This document shows, one piece after another, positions 2,148 through 18,085 of a stretch of DNA of 64,000 nt. A program made the position numbers and the translations under genes. The notes under the pieces are model-generated. The model was not told the DNA's origin. It saw only the letters and a list, made by a program, of their open reading frames with translations, and did no database searches. Each line of letters opens with the position of its first letter. The stretch's first letter is position 1. This DNA is from Vulcanimicrobiota bacterium (lineage in GTDB: Bacteria; Vulcanimicrobiota; Vulcanimicrobiia; Eremiobacterales; Eremiobacteraceae), in NCBI GenBank assembly GCA_963812135.1, contig CAWETU010000001.1:1184001-1248000 (forward strand), written 5' to 3'.

Positions 2148-2201
2148 GGTATGCGGCGTCTAAACCTCGCGTCGTTTCTGGATGCCTTCGCGGAGCCGAA
2201 C

Positions 2202-5200
2202 GTGATCTTGCGAATCATCGTCACCGCGGTGTTCGTGGCGTTAGCGATGGCAGCATGGTCGATGGTCGCGCGCACCGCGGGTACCGTCGGCGTCAATAAG
2301 GCATTCGCTCCATCAAGCGTCAGCTTCGGAACGGACTCGACGCTCACCATCACGCTGCTCAACAGCGATCCGACCGCATCGGTCAACATCACGACGATGA
2401 CGGACAATATGCCGGCCGGGCTGTCCGTCGATCTTGGCCAGCCTGCGACGACGACGTGCGCGGGGGGGGTCGTCGGCACGACGGTATCGAGCGTGACGTT
2501 GACGGGCGGCGTGATTCCGCAGGCGCCAGATTCGTTCAACCCCGGCACATGTACGGTGACGCTCTCCGTATACGGCGCTGCCACGCAGAATTATGTCAAC
2601 ACCATTCCCGCCGGCGGCCTCGTGACGAGCGCCGGCAACAACGGCACGCCCGGCAGCGCGACGCTGCAAGTCACCGACCCCGGGAACATCGGCGTCGCGG
2701 TCAGCGTCCTCCCGACGCAGGTGCCCGAAACAGCTTCGCCCGTGTACACGGTCACGATCACCAACCCGAACAAGCTTGCGCTCACCAACGTGACGATCCC
2801 GGGCACGTTGACGAGCCCCTCAGGCGGTGCCACGCTGCACATCGTCAGCGCGGTGAGCAGCTGCGGCGGTTCGGTCGTCGTCGTGAATGGATCGCCGACG
2901 ACGTTCACGGTCACCGGCGCGACGATACCCGCGAACGGATCCTGTACGGTGACGGTCACCGTCAGCGTCAACGGCCAGTTCAGCAACAGTCAGCGCACGC
3001 AACGGTTGACGATCGCAGCGGGCGCCGTCACTTCCGCACAAGGCGTGACGAATAGCACCGGGTCGCAGGCCGATGTCACATACTTCCCGATCACGCCGAC
3101 GATCTCCAAGACCTTCACGCCGAACGTGACGGTACCAGGGGCGACGGTCTTGGTGACGCTCAATGTGGTCAGTCGCGACACCGTCGCGCTCACCAACTTC
3201 GGCTTCACCGACGTGCTGCCGGGGGGGTTGACTCTTGGAGCACCGCCCAATCTCGCCAACTCGTGCGGTGGTCCGGCGGGTTCGATCTCGGGAACGACGA
3301 CGGTCGTCGTATCTGGGTTGACGATAACGCAGGCTGCGAGCCTGGGCGCAAGTGGTCCTACGTGCCACGTCTCGTTCAACGTGCTGGTGCCGCTGGCGCC
3401 TCCCAGCCAGACGCCCACGAATTCGGTCGGCGCCAGCAGCGTGGTCAATGATCAAGGGTTGAAACCCCTGTCCGCTGCGAGTGCCGTGCTGACGGTCGGC
3501 CCGACGCCGACCCCACAACCGACGTTTAGCAAGGCGTTCTCGCCATCGACCGTTGCCCGAGGCAATAACTCAACCCTCACCATCAACGTCATCAATCCCG
3601 CCGGCGGGCTGCAACTCAACAACGTGAGCGTCACCGACACCTTGCCGGGGGCCTTGACCATCTTCTCGGCCCCGACGGCGAATGCGAATTGCGGTGCCCC
3701 GACGCTGGGCGGCGCACCGGGCGGCACGGTGATCACGATGACCGGCGGAACTATTCTCGCCGGAGCGCACACTTGCACCATCTCGGTCGTCGTCTCGACA
3801 GCCAACGTGACGCAACCATTCAACGTCACCTTGAAGAACGACATTCCGCCCGGCGGTATCACGGCAGTCAAGTCAGACCTCACGCCCGTGAGCAACGCAG
3901 CCGACGTCACCGCGAACTTGATCGTCTCGCATGGGCTCAGCCTAGTCCATTATTTCTCGCCTACCGGGTCCACGACGGTCGGCGTCGCTCCGATCAAAGA
4001 CACCATCAGCGTCGAGGACAAGATCGTTTCGACGGCGGCGTCGGACGACCACAACCTCTCCGCAGTCTTCACGCTGAATGCGTCCGGGTCGGCCGTTGTA
4101 CTCGCCGCAGTGCCGAATTTCACATACGTGTGCACGAAGGGTTCGGTCTTGACGTTCACGCCCGGCGTGGGGGGCTTGACCTATACCGCGGCCTCGGCCG
4201 ATTTCATCTTCAAAGACACGTGCACGATCACATACTCGGTAACGTCGCTCACCGCTGGCACATTCACCGCCGGCAAGATGACCGTCTCGAGCACCGAGGA
4301 TAATCTGCAGACTCTTTCAGGCTCGAACAACGTGATCTTCGTTAGCCCAGGGAACATCAACGTCAACAAGACGTTCACGCCGAACGCGATCCCCGCGGCC
4401 GGCATCTCACACATGCAGATCACGCTGTCGAACGACGCCCATGCGGCGCCCGGCGGAATCGTCTTCAACGAGACCGGCGTCGCGCTGACGGATAACATGC
4501 CGGCGGGCATGACCGTCGCCGCAGTACCAAATGCGAGCACGACCTGCGCCTCGGCTACGCTGACTGCGGTCGCCGGCGCGAGCAGCGTGTCGATCAGCGG
4601 CGCTTCCTTGCCGTCACGCACTGCAGGCGATGCGTTGCAGCCGTGCACCATCACGGTCGACGTCACAGCGACCGTGCCAGGCAATCTCACGAACACGATA
4701 CCGGCTGGATCCGTCACCTCGGGTTCGGGTGCCACCAATGCATTCGCCGTGAGCGTGTCCTTGACGTCGTCGGCGAACATCGGCCTGTCGAAGGCGTTCT
4801 TGCTCACGACGATCCCGCCGGGCGGCTCGACCTGGGTCGCGCTGACGTTCACGAACGGGTCGAACATCAGCGAGACGGTCAACAGTCTAACTGACAATCT
4901 GCCCAGCGGTATCGTCGTCAAAGATATCGTGTCACAGCCGCCGCCCCAGGGCGGGGCGCCGCCGAACTGCGGCGCAACCGTCACCGGCGTGGCCGGCGGC
5001 AGTTCGTTCACGGCGAGCAATTTCACCCTTGCACCGGCAGCCAAATGCGTCACGTACGTCGCCATAACGACGTCGACACCAGTCCAATTCGGTGTCTTTA
5101 ACAACACGATTCCCGCTGGCGCGATCGTCTCGGGCAGCGGCTTATCGAACCTGCAGCCGGCCACCGCGACCATCACGGTGGCGGCGGTGTCGCTGTCACT

Positions 5201-5510
5201 GGGCAAGCTCGTGCGCAACGTGACGACCGGCGGCACCAACGGCACCACCGCCAACGCGTCGCCGGGCGATACGCTGCTCTACACGCTGACCTACACGAAT
5301 ACGAGTCCGTTCGCCGAAGCGAACCTTGCCATCAAGGACACATTGCCGCCCAACACGACATTCGTCAGCGCCACCTGCGGCACGCTCGGCGGCGGCTTGA
5401 CGGCATGTACGCCTTCGGGTCCGACCCTGGGCGTGGTGACCTGGACGCTGACCGGAACGCTCAACGCCGGTGGCACGGGGACGGTCTTCTTGACGGTGAC
5501 GGTGCAGTAG
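2202..5510 (+). CDS. Secreted multi-repeat DUF11-like Ig-domain surface protein (about 8 modules); putative fibre tip adhesin
   Basis: Signal peptide; repeated K(A/T)FxP...TDxLPxG...C...C...N(T/D)IP modules; terminal LGKLV...KDTLPP...VFLTVTVQ* domain. ORF track start is 2151; GTG 2202 preferred (RBS GGAG). Confidence 0.8.
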   Translation: MILRIIVTAVFVALAMAAWSMVARTAGTVGVNKAFAPSSVSFGTDSTLTITLLNSDPTASVNITTMTDNMPAGLSVDLGQPATTTCAGGVVGTTVSSVTLTGGVIPQAPDSFNPGTCTVTLSVYGAATQNYVNTIPAGGLVTSAGNNGTPGSATLQVTDPGNIGVAVSVLPTQVPETASPVYTVTITNPNKLALTNVTIPGTLTSPSGGATLHIVSAVSSCGGSVVVVNGSPTTFTVTGATIPANGSCTVTVTVSVNGQFSNSQRTQRLTIAAGAVTSAQGVTNSTGSQADVTYFPITPTISKTFTPNVTVPGATVLVTLNVVSRDTVALTNFGFTDVLPGGLTLGAPPNLANSCGGPAGSISGTTTVVVSGLTITQAASLGASGPTCHVSFNVLVPLAPPSQTPTNSVGASSVVNDQGLKPLSAASAVLTVGPTPTPQPTFSKAFSPSTVARGNNSTLTINVINPAGGLQLNNVSVTDTLPGALTIFSAPTANANCGAPTLGGAPGGTVITMTGGTILAGAHTCTISVVVSTANVTQPFNVTLKNDIPPGGITAVKSDLTPVSNAADVTANLIVSHGLSLVHYFSPTGSTTVGVAPIKDTISVEDKIVSTAASDDHNLSAVFTLNASGSAVVLAAVPNFTYVCTKGSVLTFTPGVGGLTYTAASADFIFKDTCTITYSVTSLTAGTFTAGKMTVSSTEDNLQTLSGSNNVIFVSPGNINVNKTFTPNAIPAAGISHMQITLSNDAHAAPGGIVFNETGVALTDNMPAGMTVAAVPNASTTCASATLTAVAGASSVSISGASLPSRTAGDALQPCTITVDVTATVPGNLTNTIPAGSVTSGSGATNAFAVSVSLTSSANIGLSKAFLLTTIPPGGSTWVALTFTNGSNISETVNSLTDNLPSGIVVKDIVSQPPPQGGAPPNCGATVTGVAGGSSFTASNFTLAPAAKCVTYVAITTSTPVQFGVFNNTIPAGAIVSGSGLSNLQPATATITVAAVSLSLGKLVRNVTTGGTNGTTANASPGDTLLYTLTYTNTSPFAEANLAIKDTLPPNTTFVSATCGTLGGGLTACTPSGPTLGVVTWTLTGTLNAGGTGTVFLTVTVQ

Positions 5511-5512
5511 CG

Positions 5513-7252
5513 TCAGGCTTTTGACGCGATCTCCTCGCCGAGTTTGATCGCGAATTCATCGGGCGTCATGGTCGTCTGCTCGCCCGAGCGCGAGCGCACG
5601 TTGACCTTGTTCTCCGCCACTTCGCTCTTACCAACCACGAGCATGTAAGGCACCTTGCGCATCTGTTGATTGCGGATCTTTTTCTGCAGCCGCTCATTGG
5701 ATCGGTCGACCTCGACGCGGAAACCGGCCGATGCCAGCGACATCGCGACGCGCTCGGCATAGGGCGCCTGATCCTCGGCGATGGGCAGCACGACCGCTTG
5801 GACCGGCGCCAACCACGCGGGAAACGCGCCGGCGTAGTGCTCGATGAGCACGCCCATGAACCGCTCCAGCGAGCCGCACAAGGCACGGTGGATCATCACC
5901 GGCCGGTGTTCGGAGCCGTCCGCGCCGGCATACGTCAGCCCGAAGCGCTCGGGTAAGTTGAAATCGACCTGCACGGTCGAGAGTTGCCACTCCCGGCCGA
6001 TCGCGTCGCGCACTTTGATGTCGAGCTTGGGGCCGTAGAACGCGCCGCCGCCCTCGTCGATCTCGTATTTCAAACCGGCGTGATCGCAGGCGGCTTTGAT
6101 CGCGTTGGTGGCGCGCTCCCAGAGCGCGTCGTCGCCGAGCGCGTTCGGGGGCTTCGTCGAGACGAACATCTTGTAGTCGTCGAACTTGAACGCCTTGAGC
6201 ACGGTCAGCGCGGCGTCGACGCAATCCTCGAACTCCTGCTGCAGCTGATCCGGCGTCACGAAAAGATGGGCGTCATCCATCGTGATCATTCGCACGCGCA
6301 GCAAGCCGTGCAGCGTGCCGGAGCGCTCGTCGCGATAGACGGTTCCGAACTCAGCGAGCCGAAGCGGCAGGTCGCGATACGAACGCGGCCGCGATTTGTA
6401 GATCAAGATGTGCCCCGGGCAGTTCATCGGCTTGACGCGATAGTGTTGTTCGTCGAGCTCGAACGGGCCGAACATGCTCTCGCTGAACGTCTTGAGATGG
6501 CCGGACGTCGCGAACAACGCCTCGCGCACCGCGTGCGGAGTGTACACGGGTTCGTAGCCGCGCCGGCGCAGCTCGCCGCGGATGAACTCCTCGATGACGC
6601 CTCGGACGCGACCACCCGCGGGATGCCAGAAGATGAGGCCGGGTCCCGCATCCTCCTCGATTGAGAAAAGATCAAGCTCTTTGCCGAGCCTGCGGTGATC
6701 GCGGCGTTCAGCTTCTTCGAGCTGCTTCAGATACTCGTCGAGCTCGTGCTGCGTCGGAAAGGCGGTGCCGTAGATGCGCTGCAACATCGGATTCTTCTCA
6801 TCGCCGCGCCAATACGCGCCGGCGACGGACAGCAGCTTCACGGCGCCGACTTCCGAGCTGCGCTCGACGTGGCCGCCGCGGCAGAGGTCGGTGAACTCGC
6901 CGATCGTGTACATCGACAGCGGCTCACCATCGGGAATGCCGGCGATGATGTCGAGCTTGAACGGCTGATCGAGCTTGGTGTAGTAGGCTAGCGCTTCGGC
7001 GCGCGTGACCGGCCTGCCGGTCATCTTGACGTCTTGCTTGATCAGCTCGCGCATGCGCGCTTCGATGCGCGGCAGATCTTCCGCCACGAACGGCGTGCTC
7101 TTGAGGAAGTCGTAGTAAAATCCGTCCTCGATCGCCGGCCCGATCGCGAGTTTGACATCATCGCCGAATAGATCGACGACCGCGTGCGCGAGCAGATGCG
7201 CCGCGGTATGCCGGGAGTGACCTAGGTCACGTTTTGTGTCTCCAGCGTCCAT
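5513..7252 (-). CDS. thrS: Threonine--tRNA ligase (lacks N-terminal TGS domain)
   Basis: RHTAAHLLAHAV, DLCRGGH, GAYWRGD, RDHRRLG, KPMNCPGH, GAFYGPKLD, HRALCGSLERF. Confidence 0.98.
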   Translation of the reverse strand: MDAGDTKRDLGHSRHTAAHLLAHAVVDLFGDDVKLAIGPAIEDGFYYDFLKSTPFVAEDLPRIEARMRELIKQDVKMTGRPVTRAEALAYYTKLDQPFKLDIIAGIPDGEPLSMYTIGEFTDLCRGGHVERSSEVGAVKLLSVAGAYWRGDEKNPMLQRIYGTAFPTQHELDEYLKQLEEAERRDHRRLGKELDLFSIEEDAGPGLIFWHPAGGRVRGVIEEFIRGELRRRGYEPVYTPHAVREALFATSGHLKTFSESMFGPFELDEQHYRVKPMNCPGHILIYKSRPRSYRDLPLRLAEFGTVYRDERSGTLHGLLRVRMITMDDAHLFVTPDQLQQEFEDCVDAALTVLKAFKFDDYKMFVSTKPPNALGDDALWERATNAIKAACDHAGLKYEIDEGGGAFYGPKLDIKVRDAIGREWQLSTVQVDFNLPERFGLTYAGADGSEHRPVMIHRALCGSLERFMGVLIEHYAGAFPAWLAPVQAVVLPIAEDQAPYAERVAMSLASAGFRVEVDRSNERLQKKIRNQQMRKVPYMLVVGKSEVAENKVNVRSRSGEQTTMTPDEFAIKLGEEIASKA

Positions 7253-7412
7253 TGCGGGACGTTTCTCAGAAACCCGCGTGAGGACCTAGCGTGCTGTATG
7301 TCGTTTTGACGATAGTAATATCAAGCAGCCCCAGTTACAAATTGTTTGTACCAGGGGTCACAATGTGTGGGAGCCGCCGTTTGGCGGCAAGTCTTGGGGG
7401 ACGAGGAACGTC

Positions 7413-7901
7413 ATGCGTTTAGTAGCCCGGGGTATTCTTGTGTGCCTGAGCGTGATCGCGCTCACCGCATCGGTCGCGCTCGCGCGACCCGATGTCGTTT
7501 TGCATTTGAGCGGCGCAACCGTGCAACGCACGGCCAGCGGCGAGAAGCTCGTACCGCTTGACCCCGCTGTCAAGCTCAAAGCCGGCGAGGTCGTCCGCTG
7601 GACGATCGTCGGCACGAACAAAGGTTCCGATCCAGCGCTGCACTTCACGCCGGTTGATAAGATCGCCGCGGGCACCGCGTACATCGCGGGATCCGCAACC
7701 ATCGTGGGAGGGCGGCCAGAGTTTTCGCTGGACGAAGGCAAGACGTGGTCGCCAAAACCCATGGTGGTCGTCCAGTCCCCGACGGGTCCCGTCAACAAGC
7801 CAGCGGACCCGTCTTCATTCACGAACATCCGATGGATCGCTGACAAATCGCTCGCGCCCAAAGCAAGCGCGCGGTTTTCTTTTGAGGTCCGGGTGAAATG
7901 A
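7413..7901 (+). CDS. Secreted single DUF11-like domain protein (putative chaperone/cap)
   Basis: RBS GAGGA then ATG 7413; signal peptide; AGEVVRWTIVGTNKG...VDKIAAGTAYIAGSA...IRW...FSFEVRVK*. Confidence 0.8.
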   Translation: MRLVARGILVCLSVIALTASVALARPDVVLHLSGATVQRTASGEKLVPLDPAVKLKAGEVVRWTIVGTNKGSDPALHFTPVDKIAAGTAYIAGSATIVGGRPEFSLDEGKTWSPKPMVVVQSPTGPVNKPADPSSFTNIRWIADKSLAPKASARFSFEVRVK

Positions 7902-10228
7902 CAAGGAGCAAAGCGAGACCCATGAACCAACCTCGGTTCGCGTCCCTTCTGCGTCCAGCGGTTGGCATAGCTGCTGCGGCGTTCGTCTGCTGCGCGCTGG
8001 CGTTCACGAGCCAGCCCGCCGCCGCAGCCACGGCAGCCGGCACCCTGATCTCGAACACCGCGTCGGCGACCTACACCGATACGAACGGCGTCAATTATTC
8101 GACCCAGTCGAACACCGTCGTGGTCGAGGTGCAAAACGCACCATCGCTCACGGTGTTCACCAATAACGGCGCAGCGCCCGGCACCGGCACCGGCGTGCCG
8201 AACTCGTGTTTCGCAGATGTCTACACGCTGACGAACACGGGTAACGGAATCGGTCACTTCCAACTGCCGACCATCTCGCCACCGTTCGCGGGCAGCGATG
8301 CCGGTTCGGTCACGACCACGTCGTATTCGCTGTCGATCAACGGCGGCGCCACGACCACGGGCATGACGCTGGCGGCGCTCAACGCGGCGCTCGCGGCGCC
8401 TGGCGGTCTGATCCCAGCCGGCGGCAACGTCGTCATCACGATCAACTATTGCATCGGTGGGGCGGTCGTGCCCGGCACGATCATCTCGACGGTGCAGGCC
8501 AACATCAAGTACTTCGCGGCCGACCAGCCCAACCCGGGTGGTCTTGTCGACACGACGTCGGCGAACGTGACGAACACGTACACCGATACGATCACCGGCG
8601 ACGCGCGGCTCGACCTGCAGAAGACGGTCTCGATCACCGGTCCGGCGGGCGCGCCCGTGGTCAACTACACGGTCAAGGCTGCCAACGGTGGCAACGCGGC
8701 GGCGCGTACGCTGACGAGCGTGCAGGGCATCGGCTCCGGCGCGCCCTTCACCACGCCCGGCGTGCTCGCGGTGGCTGACAAGATCCCGCTCTTCGCGGCG
8801 ACGACGTTGACGCTCAACGGCGTGCCGGCGTTGGCGACGAATATCGGCAACGGCTTTGTCGCAGGATCGGTCGCGACCATCGTCTACTCGACGGATCCCA
8901 CTGGCGCCACCAGCTGGTCGACCAGTGCGGTGAACGCGAAGTGGATCGGCGTGTACGTCACCAACGGGGCAGCCTACTCGCCGGTGTTCAACACGAACGG
9001 CACGTCGGCGGCCGGCAACGTCCCCAATCCGGCGATCACGCTGACGTTCTCCGTGAACGGGCCTACCGGACCTGGCTCGGGTAACCCGAACGCGGTCTGC
9101 AACATCGCCAACAGCGTCGTCGGTGGCGACGCCAATAACGCCAATCCCTCGCAGCTCATCGGACCGACGATCACCAGTTTGGTGAACGATGGGTCCGCGG
9201 GCGCAGCGACGCAGATCAACAACGCCATCAACAACACGACGGCTCTCGCGAACCCGAGCGGCGCGTCGCAGTTCGTCTGCGTCGCGATGCCGGCGAACCG
9301 CGCCGTGCTCAACGGTCCGCGGACCGCACCGGGCGCGACGGGCAGTTTCGACGGCGTCGTCGCGGTGAGCAACGACAATGACTTCACCGACGTCGGCTTC
9401 GTGCAACCTGCGTTCACGATCGTGAACGCCGGCACGGTGCCGGGCACGCCGAACGGCAACAACTTCTCCGCGGCCGTGTCGGGCATCAACGCCTCGAGCG
9501 ACGTCATGAACAACGGCAACGTGGACGACACCTACAACATCGTCGCCACCGCGCCGGCCGGTTTTACCGTGCAGTTGTTCCAAGACAACGGTGCGAACGC
9601 GCCGAGCGCGACGCCGCTTGGCGGCGCGACCGCCGGTGCGACGTCGACTGCCACGGGCGTAGCGGTCGCGTCGGGCGTGACGCTGCACTACTGGGCGGTC
9701 TACAGCGCGCCCAACGGCACGCAATCGCTCAAACGCTACGACGGCAACACCATCGCCACGAGCGGTGCCGATGCCACCATCCACAACGAGACGCACCATG
9801 AGCTGTATTCCAGCTTCGTGGCGCTGACCAAGTCGGTCGTGATCGTGACGAACTGCTCGGGCCCCGTGCCGGCCAACGGCGTGTGCCCGGGCGGCACGCT
9901 CACGTACACGCTTGACTACAGGACGATCGTCACGATACCTGGTGCGGGCAATACTGAGCCTGCGGCCGCGATCTTGACGACATCGGCCGGGTCGGTGGTC
10001 GTCACCGAAGACGGCGCCGCTGCTCCCAACAACTGGGCAACGTTCACGAATGGACTCAACGGAGCGGTGATCGACTCGAACGCCTGGGGCACCGTGTTCA
10101 CGTACACGCCTGGTCCAGGCCCGGCCACTGCGACGAAGTTCACGGCGCAGCTGGGCGGCGCGAGCGGGGTGCTGTCTCCGACGGGAACCGCGCAGGGCAC
10201 GCTGACCTTCGCCCTTACCGTGAAGTAA
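7898..10228 (+). CDS. Secreted DUF11-family protein, putative major fibre subunit
   Basis: ATGA overlap with upstream gene (alternative start 7922); signal peptide; mature N-terminus ATAAGTLISNTASATY; T/G/A/N/V-rich Ig repeats; ends LTFALTVK*. Confidence 0.8.
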   Translation: MTRSKARPMNQPRFASLLRPAVGIAAAAFVCCALAFTSQPAAAATAAGTLISNTASATYTDTNGVNYSTQSNTVVVEVQNAPSLTVFTNNGAAPGTGTGVPNSCFADVYTLTNTGNGIGHFQLPTISPPFAGSDAGSVTTTSYSLSINGGATTTGMTLAALNAALAAPGGLIPAGGNVVITINYCIGGAVVPGTIISTVQANIKYFAADQPNPGGLVDTTSANVTNTYTDTITGDARLDLQKTVSITGPAGAPVVNYTVKAANGGNAAARTLTSVQGIGSGAPFTTPGVLAVADKIPLFAATTLTLNGVPALATNIGNGFVAGSVATIVYSTDPTGATSWSTSAVNAKWIGVYVTNGAAYSPVFNTNGTSAAGNVPNPAITLTFSVNGPTGPGSGNPNAVCNIANSVVGGDANNANPSQLIGPTITSLVNDGSAGAATQINNAINNTTALANPSGASQFVCVAMPANRAVLNGPRTAPGATGSFDGVVAVSNDNDFTDVGFVQPAFTIVNAGTVPGTPNGNNFSAAVSGINASSDVMNNGNVDDTYNIVATAPAGFTVQLFQDNGANAPSATPLGGATAGATSTATGVAVASGVTLHYWAVYSAPNGTQSLKRYDGNTIATSGADATIHNETHHELYSSFVALTKSVVIVTNCSGPVPANGVCPGGTLTYTLDYRTIVTIPGAGNTEPAAAILTTSAGSVVVTEDGAAAPNNWATFTNGLNGAVIDSNAWGTVFTYTPGPGPATATKFTAQLGGASGVLSPTGTAQGTLTFALTVK

Positions 10229-10253
10229 CGGAGAAGGCGGTAGGAGCCTGACG

Positions 10254-12398
10254 GTGTTCCGTTGGTTGGTCCCGATTCTGGCGGCGGCTAGCGTCGGCGC
10301 GGTCGTACTTGCGACTGCGCCGGCGCTCGCTGCTACTCCGGCGGGCACGCTGATCAGCAACACCGCGTCCGCCACGTACTCGGACCAGTCCGGCACCGCG
10401 TACGCCACCGACTCGAATACGATCGTGGCGCAGGTGCAGGCGGTCGCGTCGCTGACGGTCTCGCCAAAAGAAGCGGTAGTCAATCCGGGGCTCGACGCGT
10501 ACGCGGTCGGCATGCCGGTGACGCGCCGCTTCATCATCACCAACACCAGCAACCTCACCGACGCATACACGATCCAATCCGCGACGACCAGCGCGGGCAC
10601 GATCACCGCGATCAATTTCGTCGTGCCTCCGGGTGGTCCGACCATCCCCGTCACCGTCGGCAGCACGATTTCGCCAAACGTCGTGCCGGGCGGCACGATG
10701 TTCGTGGACGTCACGGTGAACACGACGGGCATCCTCGTCGGCGCATCCTGGTCCATCAACATCAAAGCCCAGACCACGGTGGCGGGCACTGCGAACGGAT
10801 TGCAATCCGACACCGGTCAACGCTGGGCGATCGCGGTGCCCGGTCCCAACCTTAGCGGCATCAAGAAGTTGGTGGGCGGCCAGGCCTCGACACAGGCGGC
10901 ACCGGGCAGCACGGTCGCCTTTAGCATCTCGTTCACCAACACAGGCGGGCTGCCGGCAAACAACGTCGTCGTCACCGATGTCGTTCCCGTTGGCTTGCAC
11001 CCGCTCTTGAATTCCGTGCTCATCAACGGCGTCGCAGCCGGCGGCCAAGCGACCCTCGTCGGCCAAACGCTCACCGTCACGATTCCAACCGTCGCCGCCT
11101 CGCAGACGATCGTCATCGCGTTCAATGCGACCATCGACTCCGCTGCGGCGTTGGGCACGAGCTACGTCAATACGGCGCAGGTTGTCGCCACCGGCTTTGG
11201 CCCGGTGACTTCGCCGCCCGCGAGCGTGTTCGTCGGCACCGGCAACATCGTCTACGATGGTCTCGGCGGCGCGGGCCACCCGATCCCCGGCGCGCAGCTG
11301 ACGATCCTCAAGCCGCCGTCCATCACGCCGTACGCATTGACGGGTACGGGCGTCGCGCCGAACACATTGAACGCCAACCCCTATTCGACCGACGCCACCG
11401 GTTCGTATTCGTTCGGGTTCGGCAGCGGCCAGTTCGGCGGTGTCGGGGGCGACGCGCACTACACGCTCTTGGTGAGTGCGACCGGGTATCTCAACCGCCG
11501 CATCGACATCCTGCTGCACGCGGATCCGACGGGCACGTTGTACACGGCGACAATCACCGCGCTTGACGGGCAACTGCTCGCGGTGCCGGGCGGCTTCAAC
11601 CTGACATCTGGGCCGGTGGTGCTGAACAACGTCTTCAATCTGCTCGGGAATATCCCGATGTTCACCGCGCACCCGATCACCATTACGAAGACCGTCGATC
11701 AACAAGCGGTCGTCACCGGCAATCGCCTCATCTTCGCGGTGACCTTCGCGAACGCGTCGCTCGCGACGCTGACGAACGCGACGCTGATCGACACGTTGCC
11801 GCCGGGTGTCGCGTATGGCCCCGGCACCGCGCGCGTCGACGGCGTGCCGCAAGAGCCGCACGTGAATGGCCGCGTCCTTACCTGGACATTTGGCACCATG
11901 GCGCCATCGACGTCGCACACGATCGTGTACGGCGCCGTCGTGCTGCCGGAAGCGACGATCAACACGACGGTCGTCAACGTCGCCGCGCTGACGGCATTCG
12001 CGCAGGGCGCGCCGCTGAGCGCGTCGGCACAGGCATCGGTGGTGATCCTCGGCGGCGGCGCGTTCTCGTTCACGATTCCGATCACCGGGCGCGTCTTCAT
12101 CGACGTGGGCGGGCTCGGAAGGTTCGTCCCTGGCGATCAGGGTGTCTCCGGCGTTCGGCTGTATCTCGAGGACGGTCAGTACTCGGTCACCGACGCGCAA
12201 GGGCGCTACTCGTTCCCGTCGACACGGCCCGGCATGCACGTGATCAAACTGGATGCCTCGACGCTGCCGACCGGAGTGCGGCTGTTCCCCGATCCGCTCG
12301 ATTACGATAGTCCGCACAGCGCGACGCGGCTCGTGCACGGCATTCTCGACACTGGCCTGCTGCAAGACATCAACTTCGCAGTGGAGGCGGCCAAGTGA
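10254..12398 (+). CDS. Secreted DUF11-repeat protein with C-terminal SdrD-B/Cna-B-like domain (putative base/adaptor)
   Basis: AGGAG RBS; ATPAGTLISNTASATY N-terminus; two complete DUF11 modules; ITGRVFIDV...GVSGVRLYLEDG...TDAQGRYSF. Confidence 0.8.
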   Translation: MFRWLVPILAAASVGAVVLATAPALAATPAGTLISNTASATYSDQSGTAYATDSNTIVAQVQAVASLTVSPKEAVVNPGLDAYAVGMPVTRRFIITNTSNLTDAYTIQSATTSAGTITAINFVVPPGGPTIPVTVGSTISPNVVPGGTMFVDVTVNTTGILVGASWSINIKAQTTVAGTANGLQSDTGQRWAIAVPGPNLSGIKKLVGGQASTQAAPGSTVAFSISFTNTGGLPANNVVVTDVVPVGLHPLLNSVLINGVAAGGQATLVGQTLTVTIPTVAASQTIVIAFNATIDSAAALGTSYVNTAQVVATGFGPVTSPPASVFVGTGNIVYDGLGGAGHPIPGAQLTILKPPSITPYALTGTGVAPNTLNANPYSTDATGSYSFGFGSGQFGGVGGDAHYTLLVSATGYLNRRIDILLHADPTGTLYTATITALDGQLLAVPGGFNLTSGPVVLNNVFNLLGNIPMFTAHPITITKTVDQQAVVTGNRLIFAVTFANASLATLTNATLIDTLPPGVAYGPGTARVDGVPQEPHVNGRVLTWTFGTMAPSTSHTIVYGAVVLPEATINTTVVNVAALTAFAQGAPLSASAQASVVILGGGAFSFTIPITGRVFIDVGGLGRFVPGDQGVSGVRLYLEDGQYSVTDAQGRYSFPSTRPGMHVIKLDASTLPTGVRLFPDPLDYDSPHSATRLVHGILDTGLLQDINFAVEAAK

Positions 12399-15300
12399 GC
12401 GCGCGAGCTGCACTCGCGCGAATCACTCAAGCTGCGCTTGGGTGCTACATTCTGGCACTTTTGGCGGCGCCGGCGCTTGGCGCGCCGCCGACGGGCGCAA
12501 ACCTGAGCAACCTCACGTACACGGCGACCTCGGATCTGAGCGCGACGCTGTTGTCTCCAGCGGATAAGACCGCCTCGGCGACGAGCGCGGCGAAGATCCT
12601 CGTCTCCACCGTTGCGGGCGCCGGGGTCGAGCTGCGCGTGAATGGCAACGTCATTTCCGCGAAACAAATCGGCATGCGCTCGATCAACAAGAAGACGGGC
12701 GAGACGCGCTACGAGTTCTTCGGCGTCGTGCTCGAGCCGGGCCCCAACGTTGTGCAGTTGACCCCGCTCGGCGCAGACGACCAGCGCGGTCCGACAACGA
12801 GCTACACGCTGTTCGGTCCTGGCAAGCCCGTCCACTTCGCATTCGGACTCGATCGATCGCTGCGCGCCGACGGCGGCAACACGGTGTCAACGTTGATCAT
12901 CAGCGCGACGGACCGATGGAACAACCCCGCCATGCCAGGCGCCATCATCAAGGTCGGCATCGTGTCCGGCGACCTGCACCTGCTGGTGGCGACGTCCGCG
13001 GCGCAAGGCGAGCAGCCCCACTATCACCGCGCGAGCGCGGTCGAGATCCCGGTCGCGCCGGGCGGCATCGAGCAGCTTCCGATGGTGGCCGGATTGCTAC
13101 CCGGCGAAGCGCTCGTGCAGGTCACAGCCGCCGACGTCGTGACCAGCGAGCGATTCTACATCGATCCGAACCTGCGCAAGCCCTTCGTCGCCGGATTGAT
13201 CACCGCAGGCGCAGGTCCAGTGCCCGGATTCGCCGGCATGCCCGCCGCGGTGCCGGATGGGCAACAGACGCGTTTGGGCCGCATCGCGATTTTCGGCACC
13301 GGCGTCGTGAACCACGACATCCTGGCGACCATCGCATATGATACCGCGAACGTGCTGCAGCAGAATCTGCTCGGCCCGTACGTCGTCGATCCCTACGACC
13401 GCCCGTTCCAGACGTACGGCGACACGAGCTACCAGAACAACGACGCGTTGTCCCGCGACCATCTGTACGCGCGCTTCGACCGCAATCAGAGCAGCTTCGT
13501 CTGGGGCGAGTTCCGCCCCGACACCGGTTCGCCCGATCCCGACGGCGCGTTTCATCTCCTGGTGGACGGCGCCAAGCTCGAGCTTGGGACCAGCCGCACG
13601 CGCGTCGTCGCGTTCAACGCGAACAACGATTTCGCGTATGCGCGCCAACAGTTTAATCCGACCGGTCTCTCGCTCGGCGGTCAACTGCTCCATCCGAACA
13701 TCGTCGTCGGCTCAGACGTCGTGACGCTCGTCGTGCTCGACAAACGCACGGGTGCGGTTCTGAACCAGACCACGCTCGTGAACAACATCGACTACACGCT
13801 GGATTACTCCACCGGGCTGCTGCGCTTCATCAACATCCCGCTGCCCTACGATGACCATTTCAATCCTCAAGTCGTCCAGGTGCAGTACGAATACGGCGGC
13901 TCGGGCGTCAACTCGGAAACCACGGGCGGCCGCGCAAGCATGCTGCTCGATAGCAAGGGCAACCTGCGGCTGAACATCGGCTACGTCAACGACTCGACCG
14001 GCATGGCCAACTTCACGCTCTTCGAGCAGAGCCTGCAGGGCGCGATGCACGGCGGTTCGTGGAGCATCGCGCACATCGCGTCGAATGGCCCCGCGCTTGG
14101 CACGACGCTCGGTCCGACCGAGGCGGGCTCGTCGGTGCATGCGACATTCAGCGAGGTGTCCGGCTCCAACCGGCTCGCGTTTGATTTCACCACGGCGAGC
14201 GCCGGCTTCAACAACCCCTTCGGCGGTTTTGCGACGCCGGGCCTGACCAACTACAATTTGGAAGCCAAGCATCTGTTCAATCCGAACAGCGACATCACGC
14301 TCAACTACAACTTGCAGCACAACATCAGCACTGCGGGCAGCGAAGATCAGTCGCAAGCGTCGGTCGTGTATCACCACGTGTGGGGTGACCGGCTGCTCGC
14401 GAAACTCGGCGTGCAGACGAACGTCGTGTCGGGCGTGAGCGATCCGATCTCAGGCGCATCGGTGACCGGCTCCAACGCGCAAGCCATCCTGGGGCTCGGC
14501 TATAAGCTCTCGAAACGCCTGTCGCTCGGCGTCGAGGATATCGCGACGATCGGCGGCGGCACAACGACGCCGAGCGAGCCGTCGCAGACGATGGCGCAGC
14601 TCACCTATAGCGTGCCGAACAACACGAAGTTCTTCGTGCGCGAGCGCTGGAGTTCGCAGCCGACAGACAGTTTCGCGACGTCATCCGCGCCGTTCACAAC
14701 GGCGTCGCAGTCGACGCAGTCGTTCTCGGTCGGTTTCTCGCGCGACATGAGCGCCGCGATGTCGGTCGACAGCGAATGGGGCGTCGACCATACGAATAGC
14801 GGTCCGGACATCTACTCGGCATACGGCGTGCGCGAGAAGTTCAAGTTCGGCCGGAACCTGCAGGGCGATGCGTTCGCGCAGGACGGCAACGCGGTCGGCG
14901 GCGGGATGTCCGGGTTCTTCATCTACGGTCTGAACGCGTCGTACTCGAACACGCACAATTTCACCGCGGCCGCGTCGTGGCAGAACCGCACCGGGTCCCT
15001 GCCGGGCAGCAGCCTCACGGCCGGGTTCTCGGGTCCGCTCGGCACTAGCTTCGCGCTGCAGGGCACGCTGCAGAACTCGCGCACGCCGGATGCATTCGAC
15101 TATCAGGACCGCGTCGGCCTCGCATGGCGGCCGGCGAACAACGATCGCGGCGCCACGCTCGTCGAGTGGGATCATCGGATCGGCAATCTCTCCACCTTGA
15201 GCGAGCAGACGGACGTCATCATGGTGCAGCAGGTCTATCGCCCGACGCAAACGCTCGAACTGGCAGGCCGCTACGCGTATAAGATGGATGGCGGCGCGTT

Positions 15301-15589
15301 CTATCTGCCGCATACATCGCTGGTCGGCCTGCGCGCCGACGAGCGCATCGGCAAGCGTTACGATCTGGGCATCGAGACGCAGTTGGTCGAGCCGGCGGGC
15401 ATTCCGGCGGCGAAGTCCACCGATTTCGCGATCGAGAACGGTTACCGCATCGGCGGCTCGGCGCGGCTTGCGGTCGGTTACAACTTCGCGGGTTCGGCCG
15501 ATCCCACGCTCACCGGAGCTCCGGTGCGCAAGGGCGTTTACGTGACCCTCACGTCGATCGTCGACCGCATCTTCGGCTGGGGCCGGTAA
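12395..15589 (+). CDS. Large putative outer-membrane beta-barrel protein of the DUF11 operon
   Basis: GTGA overlap; signal peptide; N-terminal Ig-like segments then many amphipathic strands; C-terminal RLAVGYNFAG...KGVYVTL. Confidence 0.7.
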   Translation: MSARAALARITQAALGCYILALLAAPALGAPPTGANLSNLTYTATSDLSATLLSPADKTASATSAAKILVSTVAGAGVELRVNGNVISAKQIGMRSINKKTGETRYEFFGVVLEPGPNVVQLTPLGADDQRGPTTSYTLFGPGKPVHFAFGLDRSLRADGGNTVSTLIISATDRWNNPAMPGAIIKVGIVSGDLHLLVATSAAQGEQPHYHRASAVEIPVAPGGIEQLPMVAGLLPGEALVQVTAADVVTSERFYIDPNLRKPFVAGLITAGAGPVPGFAGMPAAVPDGQQTRLGRIAIFGTGVVNHDILATIAYDTANVLQQNLLGPYVVDPYDRPFQTYGDTSYQNNDALSRDHLYARFDRNQSSFVWGEFRPDTGSPDPDGAFHLLVDGAKLELGTSRTRVVAFNANNDFAYARQQFNPTGLSLGGQLLHPNIVVGSDVVTLVVLDKRTGAVLNQTTLVNNIDYTLDYSTGLLRFINIPLPYDDHFNPQVVQVQYEYGGSGVNSETTGGRASMLLDSKGNLRLNIGYVNDSTGMANFTLFEQSLQGAMHGGSWSIAHIASNGPALGTTLGPTEAGSSVHATFSEVSGSNRLAFDFTTASAGFNNPFGGFATPGLTNYNLEAKHLFNPNSDITLNYNLQHNISTAGSEDQSQASVVYHHVWGDRLLAKLGVQTNVVSGVSDPISGASVTGSNAQAILGLGYKLSKRLSLGVEDIATIGGGTTTPSEPSQTMAQLTYSVPNNTKFFVRERWSSQPTDSFATSSAPFTTASQSTQSFSVGFSRDMSAAMSVDSEWGVDHTNSGPDIYSAYGVREKFKFGRNLQGDAFAQDGNAVGGGMSGFFIYGLNASYSNTHNFTAAASWQNRTGSLPGSSLTAGFSGPLGTSFALQGTLQNSRTPDAFDYQDRVGLAWRPANNDRGATLVEWDHRIGNLSTLSEQTDVIMVQQVYRPTQTLELAGRYAYKMDGGAFYLPHTSLVGLRADERIGKRYDLGIETQLVEPAGIPAAKSTDFAIENGYRIGGSARLAVGYNFAGSADPTLTGAPVRKGVYVTLTSIVDRIFGWGR

Positions 15590-17139: not shown

Positions 17140-17997
17140 TCACGCGCGTGCGGCGACGCGTTTCTTCGCTTTGCCGTTCGATTCGCTCTTGCTCTTGCCG
17201 TTGGCGGCGACGGGCCGCTTCTTGCCCTGCTTGAGGCTTTGCTGCAGCACATCCATGAGGTTGACCACCTCGGTCGCCGGCTTCGCTTTGGCGGCGGCGA
17301 GCGCTTTGATCGGCTTGCCCTTGGCGCGCGCTTCGATCAGCGCCATCATCGCGTCGCGATATCGATCGTGGTACTCCTCCGGCTCGAACTTGTCGGTCAT
17401 CGTATCGATCAGCATCTTCGCGGCCTTCATCTCGCCGGGCGACGCCTTCTCTTTCCCTGGGGGAAATTCGAAGTCAGACGCGTCGACGATCTCGTCCGGG
17501 TAGTGCATCAGCTCGAGCACGAGGGCGTTGCCGTTCGGTTTGAGCGCGCACACGTATTCCTTCGTGCGGATGACGACGCGCGCGATGCCGACCTTATTCG
17601 ACTCGGCGAGCGCATCGCGCAACAGCGCGTACGCGTGGCGGCCTTTCTTCTCGGGCTCCAAGTAGTACGGCTTGTCGAAAAGTATGGGGTTTATCTCGGA
17701 GAGGTCGACGAACTCTTGGATGTCGATCGACTGCGTCGCCTCGATGCGGACGCTCTTGATGTCCTCGTCTGAGATGAGGACGTACTCGCCGTCACCGACC
17801 TCGTAGCCTTTGACGATCTCGTTCCACTCGACTTTCTTGCCGTCGATGCTGCACACGCGCTGGAAGTTGATGCGTCCTTTGTCCTTTTTGTGCAACATGT
17901 TGAAATGGATCTCGTTCTCGCGAACAGCCGTGAACAGGCGGACCGGGATCGTCACCAATCCGAAGTTGATCGAGCCGTTCCAAATCGCGTGCGCCAT
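17140..17997 (-). CDS. ku: Non-homologous end-joining protein Ku
   Basis: MAHAIWNGSINFGLVTIPVRL, EIVKGYE, FDKPYYLEP, YALLRDAL, VVNLMDVLQQSL, basic tail. Confidence 0.95.
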   Translation of the reverse strand: MAHAIWNGSINFGLVTIPVRLFTAVRENEIHFNMLHKKDKGRINFQRVCSIDGKKVEWNEIVKGYEVGDGEYVLISDEDIKSVRIEATQSIDIQEFVDLSEINPILFDKPYYLEPEKKGRHAYALLRDALAESNKVGIARVVIRTKEYVCALKPNGNALVLELMHYPDEIVDASDFEFPPGKEKASPGEMKAAKMLIDTMTDKFEPEEYHDRYRDAMMALIEARAKGKPIKALAAAKAKPATEVVNLMDVLQQSLKQGKKRPVAANGKSKSESNGKAKKRVAARA

Positions 17998-18085
17998 CAA
18001 AGTCCCCTCTCTGACTCTATTACTTCCCATCGGCAGCGAACGTGTGCTCCATCACAGGGCCAGAAGGAATCGAACATATCGCCGA

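Follow-up and report, generated by a model that had tools for sequence, protein, structure and literature searches.

Three neighbouring secreted proteins end just before the last two strands of an immunoglobulin (Ig)-like domain, and two proteins of the same gene group begin with what looks like those two strands. The question raised by this locus is whether such ends belong together and, if so, what is built from them. The genes lie in a stretch of 64,000 nucleotides of Vulcanimicrobiota bacterium DNA (contig CAWETU010000001.1), hereafter called the window, whose plus strand carries five secreted-protein genes, P0001 to P0005, spanning 2151-15589 (Table 1). We consider, with moderate confidence, that they encode a modular surface fibre, that is, a fibrillar adhesin of tandem Ig domains that is cut within its CLIPPER domains, rejoined through hairpins and probably locked by Lys-Asn isopeptide bonds. 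The anatomy of the proteins, the conservation of the relevant residues and the gene order are observed directly, and a model of the complex between the two kinds of ends supports this reading.

All the short strings quoted in the initial annotation, which was made from the sequence alone, were located where it had placed them. It had described three proteins as truncated at the C-terminus, and this was borne out: P0001 (...VFLTVTVQ), P0002 (...FSFEVRVK) and P0003 (...LTFALTVK) all end on the strand that precedes the last two strands of a DUF11/CLIPPER domain. In P0001, the Pfam DUF11 match covers residues 1033-1118 of 1119 and corresponds to profile positions 10-84 of 114, so that the protein stops with about 30 profile positions left, where the Asn-bearing strands would be expected. 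Consistently, TIGR04226 is covered from 14 to 85 of 123 positions in P0001, as compared to 4-120 of 123 in P0004, and our own open-domain profile reaches its final position at the last residue of P0001. The same analysis was extended to further proteins from related loci. In all five terminal domains the best DUF11 stretch ends at or before profile position 85 (two of these matches run to the last residues and three end 14-45 residues early), whereas in all three internal domains it reaches position 96 or beyond. With respect to P0003, 62 homologues were collected and 30 were aligned; all 30 terminate no more than two residues from the ...F.V.VK strand. The terminal domains of P0001 and P0003 are therefore truncated members of the DUF11/CLIPPER group, considering that Lys and the acid are present and that the end precedes the Asn strand.

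The DUF11 label used in the initial annotation holds for P0001 (50.0 bits in Pfam) and P0004 (58.6 bits), both above the cut-off of 24.6, and does not extend to the last domain of P0003, which is unmatched in Pfam/NCBIfam and which our own profile and the complex model would assign as DUF11-like. P0002 scores 29.3 bits with TIGR01451 (cut-off 24) and only 18 bits in Pfam. The body of P0001 contains five stretches of the DUF7933 isopeptide-type Ig domain (Pfam E 3.2e-86), and the hairpin profile described below gives no match in this protein.

The second claim of the initial annotation, that the missing pair of strands is found at the N-terminus of other subunits, also proved correct, since in P0003 and P0004 the signal peptide is followed directly by a conserved hairpin of two strands. 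The two hairpins are identical at 27 of 41 residues. The hairpin is the best conserved part of the P0003 family, with T45, I51, N53, A55, D61, S71, N72, V78 and P82 invariant across 30 sequences, and in P0004 residues N36, S54 and N55 are invariant in 10 orthologues. These observations support reading the C-terminal ends as CnaA-type (CLIPPER/DUF11-like) domains left open and the N-terminal hairpins as their two missing strands.

If this is correct, the residues of an isopeptide bond should be divided between the two pieces. In the CLIPPER structure 9IFR, Lys715 lies on the first strand, Asp748 is the catalytic acid and Asn806 lies on the penultimate strand (PMC12617251). Besides the hairpin, P0004 contains an Ig-like domain and two complete CLIPPER domains, and an SdrD_B-like domain at the C-terminus, with matches in Pfam and NCBIfam; each of the complete domains contains a whole triad in cis (K205/D242/N306 and K479/D513/N575), invariant in 10 orthologues. 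In the terminal domains of shaft and tip type, Lys is found in 51 of 53 cases (the other two are unaligned at this position) and the acid in 53 of 53. In the N-terminal hairpins, the equivalent of Asn53 is present in 55 of 56 and that of Asn72 in 49 of 56; N53 itself is found in 30 of 30 sequences of the P0003 alignment. The acceptor Lys and the donor Asn (of the ISN motif), whose crosslink the initial annotation had proposed, are thus conserved across phyla, and the refuting condition that the annotation had set on them, a lack of conservation in homologues, did not apply. In P0003, E704 rather than D705 probably serves as the catalytic acid. An acidic residue occupies position 704 in all 30 homologues and in all 53 terminal domains, while position 705 varies; D705, suggested by a MAFFT alignment, was set aside for this variability.

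The fit between hairpin and open domain was evaluated by modelling P0003 residues 632-776 with P0003 residues 43-86, using 30 aligned rows for each, together with three controls. The pair obtained a complex score of 0.82 (0.82, 0.73 and 0.83 in the single runs), as compared to 0.00 for the best of the three controls. In the benchmark, 116 of 157 solved complexes and 2 of 215 mismatched pairs attain this mark; these figures are only rough here, because our own alignment was used. The runs share at least 98% of contacts, and the predicted local distance difference test (pLDDT) value of the partner is at least 80. In the model, the first strand of the hairpin runs antiparallel to residues 699-703, next to E704, and the second pairs with strand A; K645 contacts residues 71, 72 and 74, and A55 contacts L643. 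Altogether, hairpin residues 43-45, 49-62, 64 and 67-82 are predicted to contact the open domain, whose strands 638-647 and 699-706 pair with the hairpin. Modelled with the hairpin, the open domain has a pLDDT of 80-84, as against 64-66 when the partner is unrelated, a gain of about 18 points. The strand insertion that the initial annotation had proposed for the P0003 C-terminal domain and N-terminal segment is supported by the model, which indicates complementarity of the hairpin and the open domain rather than binding in a cell.

The distribution of the two elements was determined in 2031 open reading frames (ORFs) from 31 related loci and 26 kb of the window. The hairpin profile gave 57 matches at an independent E-value (iE) of 1e-3 or lower, 56 of which are N-terminal. 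The remaining one is internal (L022, residues 347-385, iE 2.6e-11) and corresponds to the final two strands of a complete internal domain, directly after a ...TFHVRAK strand. The domain concerned belongs to a Deinococcales anchor-type protein (L022:5332-6566, residues 216-392) and has a weak Pfam DUF7925 match (22 bits, below the cut-off). Distant P0003 relatives and the nearest ESM Atlas clusters, some of which are labelled Cyanobacteriota, likewise carry DUF7925; look-ups in that Atlas gave unnamed or DUF7925/DUF11 clusters, which are leads only.

The open-domain profile gave 101 matches in the same set. The model end is reached within five residues of the protein C-terminus in 67 of them, of which 32 belong to proteins with an N-terminal hairpin, 21 to proteins of at least 300 residues without one and 14 to small proteins. 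In nine further matches the model end is reached inside a protein, and all nine continue in cis with a loop and a hairpin-like G..xVN.A strand; the other 25 matches are partial. The 21 acceptors that lack a hairpin at the threshold used have variable N-terminal parts (DUF7933, SpaA_3 or unknown) and are often encoded downstream of the barrel gene; a few of those from Sphingomonadales may have divergent hairpins. Many loci encode two different donor-plus-acceptor proteins or several acceptor-only proteins. In the host genome (2.79 Mb, 9920 ORFs of at least 100 residues), the hairpin profile matches P0003 and P0004 only and the open-domain profile matches P0001, P0002 and P0003 only, so that the genome contains two donors and three open ends, all within this locus.

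Two kinds of additional proteins were observed in the related loci. Downstream of the barrel gene, other Eremiobacterota-type loci encode a second large protein (L002:17926-20379, L005:17880-20333, L006:17814-20690, L008:8140-11058, L011:19489-20658 and L012, end 11044), with a P0003-like open C-terminus and no hairpin. At this position the window lacks a gene of this kind, and the upstream P0001 may fill its role. Loci from Sphingomonadales and other Pseudomonadota (L015:1920-2993, L016:11504-12586, L023:11278-12567 and L030:11451-12506) contain two short open-ended subunits of about 330-430 residues, the second with a weaker or undetected hairpin; these may be a major and a minor subunit.

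The gene neighbourhood was surveyed across phyla, and the gene order was found to recur. The order P0002-P0003-P0004-P0005 is complete in nine loci besides the window, and four more loci that are cut by a contig end are consistent with it; small protein, shaft, anchor and barrel follow one another in this way in Eremiobacterota (Vulcanimicrobiota), the phylum to which the names of homologues also assign the host. Anchor and barrel form one protein in 11 loci (labelled Acidobacteriota, Sphingomonadales or other Pseudomonadota), where a single ORF of 1,070-1,990 residues, truncated at a contig end in two cases, has matches to P0004 as well as to P0005; these fused proteins still start with the hairpin. 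Further loci come from Meiothermus granaticius, other Deinococcota, a Latescibacteria bin and a bin labelled Limnocylindria. Within the phylum of the host, the barrel protein is found in 40 of 201 genomes at E of 1e-10 or lower, 34 of them strongly. Five genomes (G130, G118, G164, G147 and G198) have two barrel-protein matches each, which at least in G130 are two separate full-length copies; this suggests more than one such system per cell. In public databases the proteins are named 'DUF11 domain-containing', 'beta strand repeat-containing' or hypothetical. Since cultured carriers exist (Meiothermus granaticius NBRC 107808 and Allosphingosinicella vermicomposti), the idea developed below is directly testable.

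In the mechanism that we propose, a CnaA-type (CLIPPER/DUF11-like) domain is split in the loop that leads to its last two strands. The upstream piece would end with the open domain, carrying the Lys (K645 in P0003, K1019 in P0001) and the catalytic acid (E704 and D1063, respectively), and the downstream piece would be a protein whose mature N-terminus is the missing hairpin with its Asn (N53 in P0003, N36 in P0004). Insertion of the hairpin would complete the domain and couple the two proteins head to tail, and the rebuilt Lys-acid-Asn triad probably forms a spontaneous isopeptide bond, which would make the joint irreversible. As the last strand of a complete domain leads to the next domain, a hairpin bound in trans would set the body of the donor in line past the acceptor, giving a linear chain. 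The donor and acceptor content then implies the order of the subunits. P0001, or other acceptor-only proteins, would be the distal tip; P0003, with both elements, would be a shaft able to add to itself; P0004, with the donor only, would be the end of the chain, held by the outer-membrane barrel P0005. The order of tip, shaft, base and barrel put forward in the initial annotation fits this pattern.

P0005 contains Ig-like domains of the intimin/invasin type (about residues 45-258) followed by a beta-barrel region (about 260-1057) with approximately 40 predicted strands (AF2 pLDDT 74.6), and it has no match in Pfam/NCBIfam. The closest folds to the model are Occ porins (Z 15), the FimD pore (Z 14.6), LptD (Z 13) and PapC (Z 12.9), all with a high root-mean-square deviation (rmsd), so the likeness to the FimD and PapC pores is no better than that to porins. 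Residues 46-258 resemble intimin D00-D0 (Z 11). The predicted fold class is clearly that of an outer-membrane barrel, without a specific relative. Regions of about 260-702 and 730-1053 each align with entire barrels of 16-19 strands, and P0005 could for this reason form two barrels instead of one giant one. No match to the autotransporter barrel PF03797 was found in P0005 or in the fused anchors; the likeness to type Va autotransporters is limited to the order of an N-terminal passenger and a C-terminal barrel, and the barrel region here comprises about 800 residues.

The initial annotation had considered the system sortase-free, and in the host genome, which is 98.4% complete, no sortase (PF04203) was in fact matched, nor were a PapD-like chaperone (PF00345) and an usher (PF00577); the sortase and chaperone profiles did match control genomes. 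An LPXTG sorting tail is absent from P0001-P0004, since P0001-P0003 end on a beta-strand and P0004 ends with ...AVEAAK. Omp85 is found in the genome. We infer that the subunits are exported through or beside the barrel. A phmmer search with P0004 gave no match among PDB sequences.

P0002 differs from the other open-ended proteins. It is a small secreted single-domain homologue of the open domain and ends on the same strand, and the initial annotation had listed it among the three proteins that stop there. The open end is present, but within the family Lys is found in 0 of 14 sequences and the acid in 1 of 14, and P0002 itself has neither of these residues nor the Asn. Without Lys and acid it cannot be a covalent acceptor, and any binding of a hairpin would be reversible. 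P0002 may therefore act as an initiator or a cap, or it may hold hairpins in the periplasm; this is the least certain step of the mechanism, to which we attach low confidence. The fold of its model matches (VIA) TTHA1873 (7wrk, Z 8.2), the CLIPPER domain 9IFR (Z 8.0 over 88 residues, rmsd 2.0) and the CnaA-type domains of BcpA, RrgB and EbpB (Z 7-8). TTHA1873, although the best fold match, was discarded as a relative in sequence, being undetectable with either the P0002 family or its Meiothermus member. An Asp-box-like motif (S.D.G.TW; FSLDEGKTWS in P0002) is conserved in an insert of this family, and the family profile matches in the PDB only sialidase Asp-boxes (E 2e-4 to 0.1) and, weakly, 9IFR (E 0.017). 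At least 671 clusters make up the family; some carry names from Moraxellaceae, Burkholderiales and Allosphingosinicella. A library-wide search with its profile returned 45,258 matches swamped by giant multi-repeat DUF11 proteins (the best of 1,500-7,700 residues) and is uninformative on the spread of the system.

Several explanations other than a growing chain were considered. The same joints could produce an adhesin stacked from one copy of each protein, namely one tip (or P0002), one shaft and one anchor, having a fixed length and a P0003 that does not add to itself. The logic of donors and acceptors requires heterotypic joints only, the many loci with two donor-plus-acceptor or several acceptor-only proteins are as expected for ordered distinct pieces, and the P0003-P0003 pairing is a predicted one. 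However, it is exactly this homotypic pair that passed the complex test, and the similarity between the hairpins of P0003 and P0004, owing to which the open domain of P0003 should take either of them, favours chains of variable length; a stack of this kind appears to us rather unlikely. Alternatively, each shaft hairpin might complete the C-terminal domain of its own chain, yielding closed and perhaps self-crosslinked monomers that serve as independent adhesins. The complex model is blind to the difference between cis and trans, and subunits of the strand-complemented tafi fibres have likewise been modelled as closed (PMC11821415). Nevertheless, P0001 and 20 other large acceptors have no hairpin, and P0004 and the fused anchors have no open domain, so these proteins are completable only in trans. 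Moreover, judging from the topology of complete domains, the hairpin would leave the completed domain opposite to where the acceptor chain enters it, and a multi-domain rod would have to fold back on itself. Self-closure is thus improbable.

It could also be that the genes encode ordinary, separate adhesins of DUF11 type, whose C-terminal domains are complete short Ig variants and whose hairpin is part of the first domain, with no complementation at all. This would agree with the confident model of P0002 on its own, with the failure of the family libraries to recognise the hairpins and with the fact that DUF11 domains devoid of isopeptide residues are common (PMC12617251). On the other hand, it would leave unexplained why Lys and the acid are retained in domains that have no Asn, while the Asn is retained in the hairpin, and why other phyla have anchor and barrel in a single protein. 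It is also at odds with the nine internal domains, all of which run on into hairpin-like strands, and with the gain in pLDDT of the open domain upon addition of the hairpin. We consider this explanation very improbable.

The interpretation as a split and rejoined fibre has its own difficulties, which are collected here. P0002 modelled alone reached a pLDDT of 96.8 (AF2), which shows that ending on that strand need not mean an unstable open fold, and the last 145 residues of P0003, when scanned, were not recognised as DUF11 by Pfam/NCBIfam. The isolated hairpins are unmatched in the same libraries even at E up to 10. Profiles of the two complete domains of P0004, and of the last 35 residues of these domains alone, gave no significant match to the hairpins (best N-terminal matches at E 1-5), although the reverse search succeeded, the hairpin profile having matched the tail of a complete internal domain. 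Among the 25 best-defined contacts of the complex model, those of K645 are to residues 71, 72 and 74, and N53 is not one of its partners. Two halves of one domain may also score well in the complex test because they resemble solved complete CnaA domains. For the census, the profiles came from the very loci that were searched, and for this reason the counts describe the pattern and are not a test of membership. The fold matches of P0005 (Foldseek, VIA) are generic, and no chaperone or export route was identified for the subunits. Finally, the gene for threonyl-tRNA synthetase (thrS), on the opposite strand, splits P0001 from the operon, and a P0001-like gene adjoins the operon in just two other loci (L001 and L013).

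How the proposed fibre relates to known systems can be considered from several sides. Chaperone-usher pili share with the proposed fibre an acceptor-only tip, rod subunits with two elements, a donor terminator and a large outer-membrane barrel as a platform (PMC13721041). In contrast to them, neither a PapD-like chaperone nor an usher was matched in the host genome, a hairpin of two strands takes the place of the single donor strand, the fold is of CnaA/CLIPPER type with a Lys-acid-Asn triad and a joint that is probably covalent, the terminator is fused to the barrel in 11 loci, and about 40 strands are predicted for the barrel as compared to 24 in the usher. From the Gram-positive side, the domains of sortase pili are of the same CnaA kind and have the same triad, and P0004 scores above the cut-off of TIGR04226, the family of the RrgB D2 isopeptide domain. 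Their domain bonds are intramolecular and their subunits are joined by sortase at LPXTG, whereas this locus has no LPXTG tail and its genome no sortase. The same domain family also makes up the stalk of the CLIPPER adhesin B9T28_05395 of Acinetobacter silvestris (9IFR), whose adhesive part is N-terminal and whose C-terminus anchors it in the outer membrane; that adhesin is a single polypeptide with intramolecular bonds only (PMC12617251), while here the stalk is split among genes before the Asn strand. The CLIPPER survey used single-chain models, and the portion of it consulted does not mention split domains (PMC12617251).

Strand complementation combined with an isopeptide bond has been reported in two other settings, both of them with folds unrelated to those considered here, with one donor strand only and in cells that lack an outer membrane. 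The thread of Sulfolobus acidocaldarius (Saci_0406) is a head-to-tail donor-strand fibre for which a sortase-free intermolecular isopeptide bond was proposed (PMC9715654). This archaeon has no outer membrane, and the bond links the N-terminal alpha-amine of Asp24 to Asn57 of subunit n+2 (PMC9715654). The thread protein has no Pfam domain, and no homology to P0001-P0005 was detected, no direct sequence comparison having been made. In BsaA of Clostridium perfringens, a member of the TasA family, an N-terminal segment enters the sheet of the neighbour, an Asn-Glu-Lys triad divided between subunits forms an isopeptide bond, and mutation of any triad residue abolished oligomers (10.1101/2024.11.04.621531). 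As described in the part of that report consulted, BsaA differs from our case in belonging to a monoderm Firmicute, in its TasA/camelysin-like fold, single strand and SipW-dependent secretion associated with type IV pili, and in having neither a barrel anchor nor a modular set of tip, shaft and anchor (10.1101/2024.11.04.621531). The TasA, BsaA and Saci_0406 families are not among the Pfam/NCBIfam matches of P0001-P0005, with no direct comparison made. As far as can be read from the sequences, the division of residues between an acceptor with Lys and acid and a donor with Asn is a likeness of mechanism to TasA/BsaA and the archaeal threads, not membership in their families.

SpyTag/SpyCatcher is an engineered split isopeptide domain that religates; SpyCatcher derives from a CnaB domain and its tag is one strand. 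The split domain of this locus appears to be natural, of CnaA type and with a two-strand tag. In DogTag/DogCatcher, too, an isopeptide domain was divided by engineering, and its tag and catcher religate (PMC8878318). A 2026 review lists diderms, in the portion consulted, with only non-covalent strand-complemented pili and monoderms with sortase pili (PMC13721041). We found no description of a split CLIPPER/DUF11 domain or of this operon in full-text searches of the literature outside subscription journals. The statement in the initial annotation that the system matches none that is named can thus be kept as far as published descriptions are concerned, and has to be corrected with regard to the principle, since strand complementation with an isopeptide lock is known from archaeal threads and BsaA. 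What we describe is a new, non-homologous implementation of this known principle.

The genes around the locus and the remaining features are as follows (coordinates of the secreted proteins and their parts are in Table 1). The stop of P0002 and the start of P0003 share ATGA, the stop of P0004 and the start of P0005 share GTGA, and the gap between P0003 and P0004 is 25 bases, so that P0002-P0005 form one tight operon. The thrS gene lies between P0001 and P0002 (5513-7252, minus strand) and occupies the same position in locus L001; its ORF of 579 residues begins at the second additional domain, and Pfam reports no N-terminal TGS domain. The neighbouring genes are housekeeping genes and encode TsaD, an NHL-repeat protein and Ku. 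The Ku-domain protein (bacterial non-homologous end joining) is encoded at 17140-18030 on the minus strand, about 1.5 kb downstream of the operon. A scan for promoters and terminators did not rise above shuffled sequences (3 vs. a mean of 2.0 and 11 vs. a mean of 9.1, respectively). Two long antisense ORFs on the minus strand, at 7358-10813 (1151 residues) and 10215-12413 (732 residues), lie over P0003 and P0004; they are probably a by-product of the 65% G+C content and of the codon bias of these Thr/Ala/Gly-rich genes.

Table 1. Positions in the window of the five secreted-protein genes and of the domains and hairpins discussed in the text.
Feature	Position	Strand	Description
P0001	2151-5510	+	1119 aa, alternative start 2202; tip-type subunit with signal peptide
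P0002	7365-7901	+	178 aa from first start codon; probable start Met17 at 7413
P0003	7898-10228	+	776 aa; shaft-type subunit with N-terminal donor hairpin and C-terminal open domain
P0004	10254-12398	+	714 aa; anchor/terminator-type subunit with donor hairpin and no terminal open domain
P0005	12395-15589	+	1064 aa; signal peptide, Ig-like domains, large beta-barrel region; proposed outer-membrane platform
P0001 open domain	5148-5510	+	residues 1000-1119; Lys1019 at 5205-5207, Asp1063 at 5337-5339; no Asn-bearing strands after it
P0003 donor hairpin	8030-8152	+	residues 45-85; Asn53 at 8054-8056; hairpin profile iE 2.4e-16
P0003 open domain	9776-10228	+	residues 627-776 by open-domain profile; Lys645 at 9830-9832, Glu704 at 10007-10009
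P0004 donor hairpin	10335-10457	+	residues 28-68; Asn36 at 10359-10361; hairpin profile iE 1e-15
P0004 complete CLIPPER domain 1	10836-11243	+	residues 195-330, cis triad K205/D242/N306; TIGR04226 at 202-310 = 4-120 of 123
P0004 complete CLIPPER domain 2	11667-12062	+	residues 472-603, cis triad K479/D513/N575; Pfam DUF11 at 475-580 = 2-97 of 114

As a plausible though tentative extension, the locus may represent a new class of bacterial fibre, found under at least five phylum-level diderm labels. In such a class, a CnaA/CLIPPER domain split into tag and catcher would be welded by an autocatalytic Lys-Asn bond, giving a covalent polymer that needs neither sortase nor chaperone nor usher, the terminal subunit would be part of or docked to a giant outer-membrane barrel, and the Lys-less P0002 family would hold hairpins reversibly until they are handed over to the covalent joint. 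If this is true, the system would combine the covalent pili of Gram-positive bacteria, otherwise built by sortase, with the strand-complemented pili of diderms, and would do so without the machinery of either. This raises the question of how the subunits stay apart in the periplasm and pass a barrel of about 40 strands. The hairpin/open-domain pairs from many phyla would be naturally orthogonal and could provide parts for protein ligation. The locus would represent nature's own use of a split isopeptide domain as an assembly device, on the principle of SpyTag/SpyCatcher, and would give a function to widespread proteins that at present are called DUF11 domain-containing, beta strand repeat-containing or hypothetical.

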